Shown: positions 444 to 4,299 of the stretch, piece by piece | How the letters are laid out: the number at the start of each line of letters is the position of its first letter | How positions within the stretch are numbered: position 1 is the stretch's first letter | DNA from: a virus | Lineage: Duplodnaviria > Heunggongvirae > Uroviricota > Caudoviricetes | IMG/VR virus record: IMGVR_UViG_2671180435_000005 | Direction: 5' to 3' (one strand) | Length of the DNA: 4,299 nt | The notes under the pieces: generated by a model | What the model was told of the DNA's origin: nothing | Database searches by the model: none | Seen by the model: the letters and a program-made list of their open reading frames with translations, nothing else | Translations under genes and position numbers: made by a program

Positions 444-1977
444 NNNNNNNNNNNNNNNNNNNNNNNNNNNNNNNNNNNNNNNNNNNNNNNTGATTCTGGG
501 CGACTGTTGCCGCACGAATACTTGCCACCGCCTTCACACCAATATACAGGGCAGAAACCGTTGCTATTGTTTTTACTGCCTGTTCCCATCCCCCCATTGC
601 TCTGACAACCTGATCAACCTCCTGCCAGACTTTTTTCACAACCGGACCGACCGTTTCCCAGTTATCAATTATGAGATATGCACCACCGACGAGAAGCGCA
701 ATTAATCCCTTTGCCGGCGTCATATTCATCACGCTACCCATGATTTTTGTTATGCGTGTCAATGTGCCAATCGCCACGCCCATCGTCAGTAATGCCGCAC
801 CAGTTTTCGCGATGGTTTTTACGACCTCAGGATTTTCTCTGACAAACGTGCGCACTTCTTCCAGAAAAGGCTTCATCTCTTTTATGCCTTCATTGAGTGA
901 AGGCAGGAAGGTTTCCCCCAGCGTGGAAGAAATCGCATTGATCTGGTTCTGCAGCAGCAACAACTGATTTTCTGTCGTCGCGGCACGGGCGGCATATTCT
1001 TTCTGCATTGAGCCGCCATACTGCTGCGCATCCGCCACACGATTAAAGTTGGTTCGCAACAAATCCAGATTCGTGAGCAGCGGCGCAATGGCCCCCAGGG
1101 ATTCCTTCCCGAACAGCGCTTTCAGCACAGCAGCCTGTTTTTCTTTCGGCACTTTTGCCAGAGAATCCAGTACGTGCAGCATGGCCCCGCGGGCGTCTTT
1201 CTGCATATCCGCCGCCAGTTTTTTCGGGCTAATGCGCAACGAGCGGAGCACTTTTTTCTGCGATTTGGTGGCAGAATCCCTCGCTGTCAGCGACAACATA
1301 AAATTCTTTATCCCCGTCGCAGCAATTTCTGACTCCACCCCCATTCCGGCAATGGTTGCCCCCATTGCGGCAATCTCTCCGGAGGCCACACCCGCAACAC
1401 TGCCTAAAGGGCCAATACGGGTCACAACATCAGAAATCTTTTTCGCACTTGCAGGACCGGTATTACCAAGATAGTTAATCTTATCCGCAAGCCCTGCCAC
1501 CTCTCCCTGTGTCAGTTTAAAGGCAGTGCGCCACTGCGCCATCATCTGACCGGATTCTTCTGCCGTGGTGTCAAAGGCCACGCCCATCTTCACGGCATCG
1601 TCAGTAAACTGCATCAGCTCGTCACGGGCGATACCAGCCTGACCACCCGCCGCCACAATTTCGGCGATACCTTCCGCCGACATGGGCAGTTCTGTTGACA
1701 GGTCGCGCACCTGCTCCGTCATTGCCTTAAACGCTTCCGGCGTATCCAGACCATCCACCACTTTCCGGACATCCGCCATTTTTGATTCAAGGGCAATGGC
1801 AGATTTGACCGGGAGCGCCAGCGCCCCCAGTACTGCGGTTCCGGCACCCGCTGCGCCCAGTAACAGGCTGGCAAACTCCTTTTTAAAACCTTTCAGCTGG
1901 CGCTGCATTCCCTTCAGCGGTGCCGATACCTTATCCACGGCAGTGATGATCGCCTTCAGCTGAAAACTGTCAGCCAT
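436..1977 (-). CDS. Tail tape measure protein, 5' and central part (3' end runs into an N gap)
   Basis: ORF of 513 codons with ATG at 1977..1975 preceded by GAGGAG (plus 1985..1990) at 7 nt spacing. The protein is Ala/Gly/Gln-rich with helical N-terminal and central segments followed by long hydrophobic stretches, and sits immediately after the chaperone gene, all typical of tape measure proteins. The ORF runs into the N run at 444..490, so the stop at 436..438 in this frame is probably an artefact of the gap. Confidence 0.8.
   Translation of the reverse strand: MADSFQLKAIITAVDKVSAPLKGMQRQLKGFKKEFASLLLGAAGAGTAVLGALALPVKSAIALESKMADVRKVVDGLDTPEAFKAMTEQVRDLSTELPMSAEGIAEIVAAGGQAGIARDELMQFTDDAVKMGVAFDTTAEESGQMMAQWRTAFKLTQGEVAGLADKINYLGNTGPASAKKISDVVTRIGPLGSVAGVASGEIAAMGATIAGMGVESEIAATGIKNFMLSLTARDSATKSQKKVLRSLRISPKKLAADMQKDARGAMLHVLDSLAKVPKEKQAAVLKALFGKESLGAIAPLLTNLDLLRTNFNRVADAQQYGGSMQKEYAARAATTENQLLLLQNQINAISSTLGETFLPSLNEGIKEMKPFLEEVRTFVRENPEVVKTIAKTGAALLTMGVAIGTLTRITKIMGSVMNMTPAKGLIALLVGGAYLIIDNWETVGPVVKKVWQEVDQVVRAMGGWEQAVKTIATVSALYIGVKAVASIRAATVAQNXXXXXXXXXXXXXXXXXN
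444..490. other. Run of 47 N (unresolved or masked sequence)
   Basis: Directly visible in the sequence. It interrupts the tape measure ORF, and the open frames on either side differ by one nucleotide. Confidence 1.
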
Positions 1978-2061
1978 GCTTCATCTCCTCGTTAATGCGG
2001 ACGGCCTCGGCTTCCAGTTCTGTAAACTGCGAAACAGCCCCCCGTCGCAGCTCCAGTGGAT

Positions 2062-2397
2062 TCAGTTTCCAGAACCAGGCAACATTGTAGAGTCGTTTCC
2101 GGAGGTGCTTCCCGTCTCCGACTGGGTAAAAAAACGCAGGATCTGCATGCTGGTCTTAAAAATATCCAGTTTTGCCATCTGCGCCGCCGATGAACGCGGG
2201 ATCCCCGCCAGCAACGGGATATATTTCAGTGCCACCTGGCTGTCCAGTTTAATACTGCCTTCACCGGAAATAATGAAAGGAAAACCCAGCGCCTCGATTT
2301 CGTCATACGTGGGCTCGCGCAACTCCAGCACATGCAGCATTTCGTTATGCGCTGTCACCGGTTTTTTTAAAACTATTTCTGTAACGTTCATTGCCAT
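2062..2397 (-). CDS. Tail assembly chaperone, short form (gpG / Mu gp41-like), 111 aa
   Basis: ORF of 111 aa with ATG at 2397..2395 overlapping the tube stop (TAATG) and a GAGGGAGGG Shine-Dalgarno (plus 2406..2414) 8 nt upstream. It lies between the tube and tape measure genes, the conserved position of tail assembly chaperones, and carries a slippery heptamer near its 3' end. Confidence 0.68.
   Translation of the reverse strand: MAMNVTEIVLKKPVTAHNEMLHVLELREPTYDEIEALGFPFIISGEGSIKLDSQVALKYIPLLAGIPRSSAAQMAKLDIFKTSMQILRFFTQSETGSTSGNDSTMLPGSGN
2100..2134 (-). promoter_or_regulatory. Putative programmed -1 ribosomal frameshift signal: slippery heptamer T_TTT_TTT (2128..2134) plus downstream hairpin (2100..2120)
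   Basis: On the minus strand the chaperone codons CGT-TTT-TTT (R88 F89 F90) form a perfect X_XXY_YYZ heptamer in the correct phase. The -1 frame after it is open for 52 codons and ends at TGA 1972..1970, overlapping codons 2-3 of the tape measure gene. Seven nt downstream of the heptamer, CGGAG (2120..2116) and CTCCG (2104..2100) can form a 5-bp GC-rich stem with an 11-nt loop. Confidence 0.45.
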
Positions 2398-2753
2398 TAC
2401 TGATACCCTCCCTCTTCGCCGTGGAATTCAAGATCTGCCGTGCCTTCTTCGGCATTATGATTAGCCTCTCCGTGCAGCCATGCCGCCGAAAGCACATACA
2501 CCATGCCGTTTGCCAGCTCAGCGGTAATCGTCATCTGGTCTGAGGTGGTAATTTTGTCGACCGGAAAGTTTTTGGGCACTTTAAACGTGCCCTTAACGTA
2601 AGGTGACCGCCAGGTCTCCTTGTAATCCACATCCCCTGCCATGCCGACGATGTCATCCCGGACATTGGTGTTCATCGGCACTTCAATGCCACCTGTCAGC
2701 GATAACTGCTGACCATCCACTTTAAAAAAACAGGTTCCGGCGATCTTTGCCAT
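2397..2753 (-). CDS. Tail tube protein (Mu gpM-like), 118 aa
   Basis: ORF of 118 aa immediately after the sheath gene, ATG at 2753..2751 overlapping the sheath stop (TAATG). A GAGGAG Shine-Dalgarno (plus 2762..2767) lies 8 nt upstream. Size and position match tail tube proteins of contractile tails. Confidence 0.8.
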   Translation of the reverse strand: MAKIAGTCFFKVDGQQLSLTGGIEVPMNTNVRDDIVGMAGDVDYKETWRSPYVKGTFKVPKNFPVDKITTSDQMTITAELANGMVYVLSAAWLHGEANHNAEEGTADLEFHGEEGGYQ

Positions 2754-4249
2754 TATGCTGACTCCTCTGAATACTGAAGACGGAACTGGTTAACCACCGC
2801 AAAGACACGTAACTGATTAACATAATCCGGCGGGAACAGCGTATTCAGTCGGTTCGGGTTATCTGCATCACGCTCAACTATCAGATACTGTTTAAACAGA
2901 TCGTAATTTTCCACAATACCGGCACGCTCCATCTGACGATATGTCGCCAGAAGTTCCCCTTTGATAACGGCAGGAGTGACAATCGCCTGCCCCGGACCAA
3001 AACGGGTACCATCATTTGCCAGCTTGTGACGTCCGTACTTGCTTGTGATGACCGATTTCAGTTTGCGAAGAACATATGCACTGGTATGCAGAGTTTCACT
3101 GTCCAGATAGCTGTTGTCTGCCACGCCATACGCATTCTTTTTGTAGGTGGTTACGGAACGCTGGATCTGCAACGTGCCGCCTTCCACATAAGCCGTCGCC
3201 ACGCCGTGAGATAAAAGGGTCTGCTGCTCTGTCATGATGAATCGCTTACCTTTCGGTGCCGGAAGCATCCCCACCAGCTCCCCCGTCTGTGTCGGACGGG
3301 CAGGATCATTCCGGATAAATACCGCTTCACGGGCAAGGCGACTGGCAACCAGTTCATCGACAGGCGACTGGGTTTCTTTTTCGTAACCGGCAAGCGTGAT
3401 ATGTTGCTGATTATGCATATCTCCGGCACCAACCAGCTCTGACAGCGTTCCCAGTTTTGCGGTATAGCCATGCCCGTATAACTGGCGCGCATAACTCCAG
3501 CGACCGCTGCTGTCATTCATTTCGGTCATCATCATATTGATGGAGGCGGCATCGTTGAACGGCAGACCGATAAAGTCGAATGCCTCATCGCCCATAGCAG
3601 CAACAGCGGCGGTAAGATCAGGCGCTCCGCTACCGGCAGCACCGACTTCCGTCACCACCCGAAGCCCTGCTGGCAGAATCTCACCACCACCAGAACCATA
3701 ATAATTCAGACAGACCGGTAACTCATTACCATACAGCCCCTTATGACGGGCAGTCAGCGTCACCACACCTGCATCAGATGACGCCGTAAACGGCAGGGTG
3801 ATAACCCCGTTTACCGCTTCCTTAATCGCGGTGGCAACCGCAGTGGCATCATCGCCATTCACCACAGGCACCTGTACACGGGAGCGCCCGACATACAGAC
3901 TCAGGGTGCCGCTTTCCTCTGCTTCTCCGGCAACCGTCACCCTGACCGTCGCCGCCGCCCCTCTGGCTTCCGGTACTGCAATAACATACAGTTCACCGAA
4001 AGGATCTGTCTGACGGTAGACTTCCACCATACGCGCCAGCTGGCTCCCCGCCCCACAAATCTGGCGGGCATAATCTGCCGATGGCATCAGCACCAGGCTG
4101 TTAACCTCAATGGCTGCATCGTTGCTGGCATGCCCGATCAGTAATGCAGGCGCGCTGGTCACCGCTGTATTTGCCGCAGAATTGTTCATCTCGGCGTAGA
4201 ACAACGGCACCAGCGTATTCGACGGAACAGTATTAAAACTTATCGTCAT
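2753..4249 (-). CDS. Contractile tail sheath protein (Mu gpL-like), 498 aa
   Basis: Longest ORF in the window, minus strand, ATG at 4249..4247 and TAA at 2755..2753. Size is typical of Mu-type sheath proteins and it sits directly upstream of a ~118 aa tube gene, a ~110 aa chaperone and a tape measure gene. Upstream AAGG motifs lie about 10 nt before the ATG. Its stop overlaps the tube start as TAATG. The Mu-like assignment is from size and gene order, not a database hit. Confidence 0.85.
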   Translation of the reverse strand: MTISFNTVPSNTLVPLFYAEMNNSAANTAVTSAPALLIGHASNDAAIEVNSLVLMPSADYARQICGAGSQLARMVEVYRQTDPFGELYVIAVPEARGAAATVRVTVAGEAEESGTLSLYVGRSRVQVPVVNGDDATAVATAIKEAVNGVITLPFTASSDAGVVTLTARHKGLYGNELPVCLNYYGSGGGEILPAGLRVVTEVGAAGSGAPDLTAAVAAMGDEAFDFIGLPFNDAASINMMMTEMNDSSGRWSYARQLYGHGYTAKLGTLSELVGAGDMHNQQHITLAGYEKETQSPVDELVASRLAREAVFIRNDPARPTQTGELVGMLPAPKGKRFIMTEQQTLLSHGVATAYVEGGTLQIQRSVTTYKKNAYGVADNSYLDSETLHTSAYVLRKLKSVITSKYGRHKLANDGTRFGPGQAIVTPAVIKGELLATYRQMERAGIVENYDLFKQYLIVERDADNPNRLNTLFPPDYVNQLRVFAVVNQFRLQYSEESA

Positions 4250-4299
4250 GATTTTTTAGCCTTATCCTTGAGGTGTACTGGCAATAGCGGACACTACCA

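Follow-up and report, generated by a model that had tools for sequence, protein, structure and literature searches.

Contractile tail genes of one and the same architecture occur in prophages and in domesticated tailocins, and a preliminary description of the IMG/VR virus record IMGVR_UViG_2671180435_000005 (Caudoviricetes), a stretch of 4,299 nucleotides (nt) here called the window at its full length, held that the compact tail module it carries could not be assigned to one or the other from the window alone. From what kind of element does this module derive, and can that element still make a tail? The answer is ordinary and already known: the window holds core tail genes that a phiP27-like prophage has left behind, as a remnant, in Shigella sonnei. 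It very probably represents a segment of the tail operon of a phiP27-like temperate myovirus that has become fossilised in the S. sonnei chromosome and is unable to build a tail or a virion. The phage from which it descends would have combined lambdoid regulation, an HK97-type head and a Mu-type contractile tail.

The inspection of flanking sequence that had been proposed for telling a prophage from a tailocin was made in related complete genomes, and these answer in favour of a prophage remnant in S. sonnei riddled with insertion sequences (IS). All unmasked window bases are 100% identical in eight complete S. sonnei chromosomes, both IS junctions included, and no difference separates these chromosomes from each other in the 4,479 nt reaching from the end of IS600 to that of IS1. 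In S. sonnei Ss046 (CP000038.1; PMC6562246) the remnant spans 2876336-2897832. The order at this locus is, upstream, clpB, yfiH, rluD, bamD, IS4, a prohead protease fragment of 120 amino acids (aa) and IS600, followed by the genes for sheath, tube, tail assembly chaperone and tape measure protein (649 aa) and a hypothetical gene split by IS1 and, past this IS1, by gpN-like, gpP-like, gp45, gp46, gp47, itself split by a second IS1, and gp48. A complete element is not found at the S. sonnei locus, as the protease fragment alone remains upstream, bordered by IS4 and bamD.

How the element came apart can be read by comparison with its relatives, in which loci are labelled L001 (phiP27), L002 (the prophage in Escherichia coli FDAARGOS_944), L005 (phage Mu) and L008 (S. 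sonnei). IS600 spans about 8722-9981 of L008, where it stands 19 bp ahead of the sheath gene and connects the region upstream of that gene with the protease gene. Compared with the FDAARGOS_944 prophage, some 3.5 kb (L002 25723-29231) has been lost at this point, a stretch that held the DUF2635, tail terminator, head closure, connector and major capsid genes and part of the protease gene. At the end of the window formed by bases 1-30, L008 carries a full 768-bp IS1 (14400-15167) with a 9-bp direct repeat, CGTTAAAAC, and the second IS1 in S. sonnei, which splits gp47 (baseplate J), is likewise accompanied by a 9-bp direct repeat, GGGGGCGCA. Both IS1 copies are simple insertions. With IS600 and its adjoining deletion the neck and capsid genes and part of the protease gene have gone, one IS1 sits just past the tape measure gene and the second breaks the baseplate J gene. 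Since the adjoining head, neck and lysis genes are gone and the baseplate gene carries an IS1, we interpret the locus as a decaying remnant, in which the four tail genes, intact in the S. sonnei reference genomes, would be incapable of building a tail or a virion. Shigella chromosomes carry 229-348 IS copies, among which IS1, IS2, IS4, IS600 and IS911 dominate (PMC7373316), and IS damage of the extent seen in the remnant is typical for Shigella.

The same locus bears on two other readings. The module could belong to an intact, inducible prophage of the phiP27/SfV kind in which the IS ends are harmless simple insertions, as all four genes retain their full length and show no difference from the S. 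sonnei reference genomes, and as the IS1 beyond the tape measure gene has simply inserted, with its 9-bp direct repeat, into a non-conserved gene. This is extremely unlikely in view of the deletion beside IS600, which spans all the genes listed above, of IS4 and host bamD lying upstream of the protease fragment where portal, terminase and lysis genes are absent, of the baseplate J gene split by the second IS1 and of a window without the tape measure 3' end. A domesticated R-type tailocin, that is, a headless killing cluster like the Mu/SfV-derived R-syringacin, would fit the absence of head genes adjoining the tail genes in S. sonnei as well as the identity of the tail genes across eight complete genomes, and Mu/SfV-type tail derivatives do exist in Pseudomonas syringae (PMC4542187). 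An IS1 does, however, break the baseplate J gene gp47, deletion has taken the DUF2635 and tail terminator genes, the leftover protease fragment indicates random decay, not clean excision, and no lysis or regulatory cassette is present within 10 kb upstream; identity among S. sonnei genomes is expected from their recent clonal origin and is uninformative on selection. We therefore regard a tailocin as highly improbable and return to the decaying prophage remnant, whose features within the window are as follows.

1-30, no strand: IS1 end, terminal 30 nt (inverted repeat); the contig stops within the repeat
31-81, minus strand: fragment (codons 21-37) of a 160-aa hypothetical gene, broken by IS1; 100% match to L002 20001-20052
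82-83, no strand: deletion junction; 226 nt present in all close relatives are missing
83-1977, minus strand: tape measure protein gene, 3' end missing, two runs of N; 649 aa in relatives
1970-2134, minus strand: predicted -1 frame extension of the chaperone, 52 codons, TGA at 1970-1972; run of seven T at 2134-2128
2062-2397, minus strand: tail assembly chaperone, zero-frame product of 111 aa; PF10109, phrog_166
2397-2753, minus strand: tail tube protein, 118 aa; PF10618, phrog_185
2753-4249, minus strand: contractile tail sheath protein, 498 aa; three Pfam sheath domains, phrog_165
4246-4268, minus strand: DUF2635 (Mu gp38-like) gene, last ~7 codons and stop; remainder lost at the IS600 junction
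4269-4299, no strand: IS600 end, terminal 31 nt; the contig stops within the repeat

Both ends of the window consist of repeated IS sequence. Bases 1-30 are the reverse complement of GGTGATGCTGCCAACTTACTGATTTAGTGT, which has 56,595 occurrences across 4,312 E. coli genomes and adjoins an IS1A transposase in MG1655. At the opposite end, a 38-nt query (4262-4299, the last 31 nt of which are the IS600 end) matches 5,001 sites across 2,666 E. coli genomes, in one of which it adjoins an annotated IS600 transposase. Homology to relatives stops at 4268, equivalent to L002 25722, within the DUF2635 coding sequence (L002 25700-25861) that overlaps the sheath start. The exact 498-aa sheath was detected in 2,065 collection blocks, with a longest contig of 2-5 kb in 1,888 of them, as would fit a fragment bounded by IS copies, and the window measures 4.3 kb because short-read assembly leaves the unique DNA between two repeated IS copies.

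Assignment to the phiP27 lineage follows from nucleotide comparison, in which the window is 96.5% identical to the Stx2e phage phiP27 (NC_003356 / AJ298298) over 92% of its length. At the protein level, identity to phiP27 is 97% for the sheath (L44), 98% for the tube and 96% for the chaperone (L46), and the four phiP27 genes L44-L47 reproduce the order, the overlaps and the slippery run of seven T observed in the window. phiP27 is, in contrast, a complete phage with terminase, portal, capsid, head, lysis and regulatory genes, Q and stx2e, whereas the window is an IS-bounded fragment without toxin genes. A second close relative, the FDAARGOS_944 prophage, is 99.8% identical to the window, most of which is present in about 260 E. 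coli records, and carries an HK97 protease, a P27-family terminase, Q, RusA and a lysis cassette. The whole element, as seen in phiP27 and FDAARGOS_944, comprises lambdoid regulation with Q and replication genes, a lysis cassette, HNH and P27-family terminase genes, portal, HK97-type protease and capsid and neck genes, after which come DUF2635, sheath, tube, chaperone, tape measure, gpN-like, gpP-like, gp45, gp46, gp47, gp48 and the tail fibres.

More distant members of the group are SfV, SfII, SfI and vB_EcoM-720R4, which have the same module in the same order at ~77% nucleotide identity and with the same -1 frameshift arrangement; their sequence has diverged, and SfV has a smaller chaperone, of 89 aa, with a slippery site reading T TTT TTC. 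The SfV tail has been described as Mu-like (PMC4542187). The organisation of morphogenesis genes is common to SfI, SfV and phiP27, and SfI, SfII and SfV are myoviruses with contractile tails by electron microscopy (PMC3636060).

Some further features of these relatives are recorded here for completeness. The stx2e genes of phiP27, coding for the A and B subunits of Shiga toxin 2e, lie at L001 23839-25074; neither the window nor the 10 kb adjoining it on each side in S. sonnei contains a toxin gene. The FDAARGOS_944 prophage is decaying independently, with ISEc60 splitting its sheath and portal genes (L002 24039-25229 and 29752-30942) and with terminase and Q genes that are frameshifted. Just past the end of its tail fibre genes lies a frameshifted ipaHe gene (L002 9094-10735), coding for an E3 ligase effector of the type III secretion system; this ipaH gene looks like phage cargo, and from its presence the strain is taken to be Shigella-like or like enteroinvasive E. 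coli.

The preliminary description had further assigned four genes to a Mu-type tail, and the assignments, their order and its verdict of a known, not a novel, kind of system all agree with the profile, BLAST and comparative evidence. In profile searches the sheath matches PF04984, PF17482 and PF17481 together with phrog_165 (5e-218), the tube PF10618 (1.4e-33) and phrog_185 (4e-43), and the tape measure protein PF10145 (8e-45), TIGR01760 (5e-105) and phrog_28 (5e-142). The chaperone matches PF10109 (Phage_TAC_7) at 6e-7, above the cutoff of this family, and phrog_166 at 5e-28. NCBIfam holds no model that matches sheath, tube or chaperone.

How far the likeness to Mu extends differs from gene to gene. 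The sheath aligns with Mu gpL over its full length (residues 3-491) at 36% identity (BLASTP, E 1e-91), and its best relative in the PDB, 9khy_a (4.5e-82), is a chain that the Mu gpL sequence matches end to end. The tube and Mu gpM are both 118 aa long and both belong to PF10618 (2.5e-36 for Mu gpM), with 23% identity (E 1e-5); a Pfam scan of the window tube detected no other tube family, including no P2 FII family match, and a PDB sequence search with the tube returned no match. The chaperone, in contrast, matches PF10109 alone and not the Mu-specific PF23746, to which Mu gp41 belongs at 9e-35, and the tape measure protein reaches 19 bits on the Mu-type PF20155 (TMP_3), under the 41-bit cutoff, whereas Mu gp42 is a PF20155 protein. 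Thus, the claim of a Mu-type tail, as opposed to a P2- or T4-type one, holds for sheath and tube and fails for the chaperone (PF10109) and the tape measure protein (PF10145/TIGR01760).

Gene order also agrees with that annotated for Mu. The Mu-type succession gp38 (DUF2635), sheath, tube, chaperone, tape measure, gpN, gpP, gp45, gp46, gp47 and gp48 is observed when the part from the DUF2635 3' end to the tape measure gene is taken from the window and the remainder from the 100%-identical S. sonnei loci, L002 and phiP27. The Mu tail genes gp38, L, M, gp41 and gp42 stand in the same order, with DUF2635 upstream in both and with the same sheath domain architecture; Mu differs in its 144-aa PF23746 chaperone, in its PF20155 tape measure protein and in being a transposable phage. 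The closest complete relatives of the window have cos, DnaB/DnaC-type replication and integrase-type attachment (att) sites, and neither transposase A/B nor a Mu-type head module was found in them. 'Mu-type tail' is therefore a fitting term for the contractile core and the gene order, and the element itself is no Mu-like phage: it descends from a phage of the phiP27/SfV kind, lambdoid and not transposable, whose head is HK97-type.

It follows that a transposable Mu-like prophage such as SfMu can be given next to no credence as the source of the module, and the same grading covers the related proposal that it is a type VI secretion system (T6SS) or an extracellular contractile injection system (eCIS). 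Homology of sheath and tube to Mu gpL and gpM would be in keeping with these readings, but identities of merely 36% and 23% compare with 96.5% nucleotide identity of the module to phiP27, and the relatives possess cos, terminase, the Q antiterminator and HK97-type head genes and no transposase A/B. S. sonnei carries, ~6 kb ahead of the sheath gene, a gene for an 857-aa AAA+ ATPase (L008 1521-4094), which might suggest an injection system; its product is, however, the housekeeping ClpB, with Clp_N, AAA, AAA_2 and ClpB_D2-small domains, and it adjoins yfiH, rluD and bamD, as in the gene order of E. coli K-12. There is a single sheath gene, of phage type, no TssB/TssC-type match was obtained in the Pfam scan, and a tape measure gene paired with a frameshifting chaperone gene is present. 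Non-phage best hits, or flanks of the T6SS or eCIS kind, had been named as what would speak against a phage tail; in fact every best hit falls in a phage family, and phage genes are present in the flanks.

The chaperone gene of this phage-derived module had been described as frameshifting, and the comparison with SfV upholds that description. The chaperone frame reads CGT TTT TTT ACC at 2136-2125, which places a T TTT TTT heptamer at 2134-2128, after codon 88 of 111, and the -1 frame is open for 52 codons up to a TGA at 1970-1972 in the sequence CAT GGC TGA, overlapping the tape measure ATG. A fusion product of 142 aa is predicted, and the -1 extension by itself matches two small PHROG families (phrog_32181 at 6.5e-5). 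Both phiP27 and vB_EcoM-720R4 have the same T TTT TTT site and -1 ORF (open reading frame), which again ends in CAT GGC TGA across the tape measure ATG. In SfV, a T TTT TTC at the equivalent codon 84 opens into a -1 ORF of 54 codons with the same CAT GGC TGA end and with a W-x-x-N-P-x-E-L motif in common with the window, and the zero frame stops four codons later. With both slippery heptamer and open -1 frame conserved in a phage whose sheath and tube DNA is only ~77% identical, a programmed -1 frameshift is well supported at the level of sequence comparison.

Three other heptamers in the chaperone gene, TTTAAAA and AAAAAAA (codons 9-10) and GGGTTTT (codon 37), were rejected because a stop follows in the -1 frame only a few codons on and because SfV lacks them. 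A terminator hit on the minus strand at 2148-2128, consisting of a 6-bp hairpin and the run of seven T, was also discarded, as it coincides with the slippery site.

The arrangement resembles that of P2 E/E+E' and lambda G/GT, in which a -1 slip at a T run near the 3' end likewise yields an extended product ending at the tape measure start; the window chaperone belongs to PF10109, a family in whose description P2 E and Mu gp41 are both mentioned, whereas the window sheath and tube are not of P2 type. The P2 mechanism was reportedly described by Xu, Hendrix and Duda in 2004. The Mu region from gp41 to gp42 (L005 6553-7144) was also inspected; gp41 contains no in-frame -1 slippery heptamer near the gene end, the frame open up to the tape measure start being +1 (or -2) and not -1, so any extended Mu chaperone would need a route unlike that of the phiP27/SfV group.

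In contractile tails the tape measure protein sets tail length. In the intact phage the chaperone would be made in two forms, 111 aa in the zero frame and ~142 aa from a -1 slip on T TTT TTT, and these would coat the tape measure protein while the tube polymerises around it on the baseplate. The sheath polymerises round the tube and later contracts, by which the tube is driven through the cell envelope.

Organisation of the four genes is that of a compact operon. Both 1-base TAATG overlaps claimed for the module are present on the minus strand, as CATAATG at 2757-2751 and GTAATGG at 2400-2394. Shine-Dalgarno motifs, described as strong, lie 6-9 nt upstream of the starts and are indeed GAGGAG for the tube, GAGGGAGGG for the chaperone and GAGGAG for the tape measure gene, but the sheath motif, AAGGATAAGG, is weaker. 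The GC content of 1970-4264, given as about 50 percent, is 52.9%. Of the tape measure gene, which reaches ~83, this range includes just the first 8 nt. Promoter-like sites (3 against 3.0 expected) and terminator-like sites (4 against 3.9 expected) do not indicate internal signals, and an Rfam gathering scan of the window detected no RNA family.

In contrast to the other three genes, the tape measure gene is disturbed in the window. Two runs of N, 114-288 (175 nt) and 444-490 (47 nt), lie within it, at places where L002 and the 100%-identical S. sonnei genomes have 146 and 30 nt, respectively. The N runs look like scaffold gaps of estimated size or masks altering length and, because they do not keep length, they create a false frame change between the ORFs 436-1977 and 89-589. 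The frame-B ORF 89-589 (166 aa), considered as a frameshifted tail of the tape measure protein, was rejected by alignment to L002, and its C-terminus "QPAANLR" is spurious. Over residues 1-495 the tape measure protein does not differ from that of S. sonnei Ss046, whose gene is complete (649 aa).

Beyond the N runs, 226 nt present in every close relative are missing from the window (L002 20053-20278, equal to L008 14123-14348), with 1 nt of microhomology at the 82/83 junction; window 31-82 corresponds to L002 20001-20052 and window 82-113 to L002 20278-20309, and the gap is also observed against all eight S. sonnei chromosomes. It takes the last 33 tape measure codons, the spacer that follows them and, from the next gene (160 aa), codons 1-20, leaving an in-frame fusion that ends within the IS1 end (...ATRSELKVTF-EILTNEEIVSRFISNVKT-VMLPTY*). 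The deletion is either a strain deletion or an assembly artefact.

The downstream gene that this deletion truncates can be recognised from window 31-81, the translation of which, ILTNEEIVSRFISNVKT, equals residues 21-37 of a 160-aa hypothetical protein (L002, coding sequence 19628-20110). This gene, found also at L007 1941-2429, occurs in E. coli and S. sonnei prophages and in 720R4 and is absent from phiP27, which has no 160-aa gene between its tape measure and gpN genes, and from SfV. The N-terminus, VIKPFLMTVAILTSCCAQA, resembles a lipoprotein signal peptide with a predicted L-T-S-C lipobox, and the gene may be a moron, such as one for a surface or exclusion lipoprotein.

Several points weigh against a non-functional remnant that once used a frameshifting chaperone. 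The loss of function is read from gene disruption, the frameshift from sequence conservation and the S. sonnei assignment from 100% identity. The S. sonnei flanks examined cover about 10 kb on each side, and a lysis or regulatory cassette could lie further out. Neither the exact IS1-phage junction nor the deletion junction is present in the genome and metagenome contig collections, and the 88 nt after the slippery run show no stimulatory RNA structure (z = -0.61 for folding against shuffles). It could be argued in the same vein that the four genes, intact in thousands of S. sonnei assemblies although IS elements have wrecked what lies around them, are still expressed and used, as polysheath, tube-like assemblies or a tailocin precursor, and that the fusion joining the tape measure gene to part of the lipoprotein-like gene is a real strain variant. 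We consider this very unlikely, as conservation among S. sonnei assemblies results from clonal recency and nothing supports selection.

The discovery value of the window is small, as the module, the phage family, the Mu-like tail and the principle of the frameshifting chaperone have already been described and the sequence is unchanged in reference S. sonnei. What can be learned concerns the reading of such loci. A contig as short as this one, with IS1 and IS600 repeats at its ends, represents an assembly fragment and no natural unit, and ClpB in the host flank could pass for the ATPase of an eCIS or T6SS on superficial reading of the flanks. For this phage family, "Mu-like" is restricted to sheath and tube and does not extend to the chaperone, the tape measure protein or the whole phage, and a "headless" tail cluster may be a decaying prophage instead of a tailocin.

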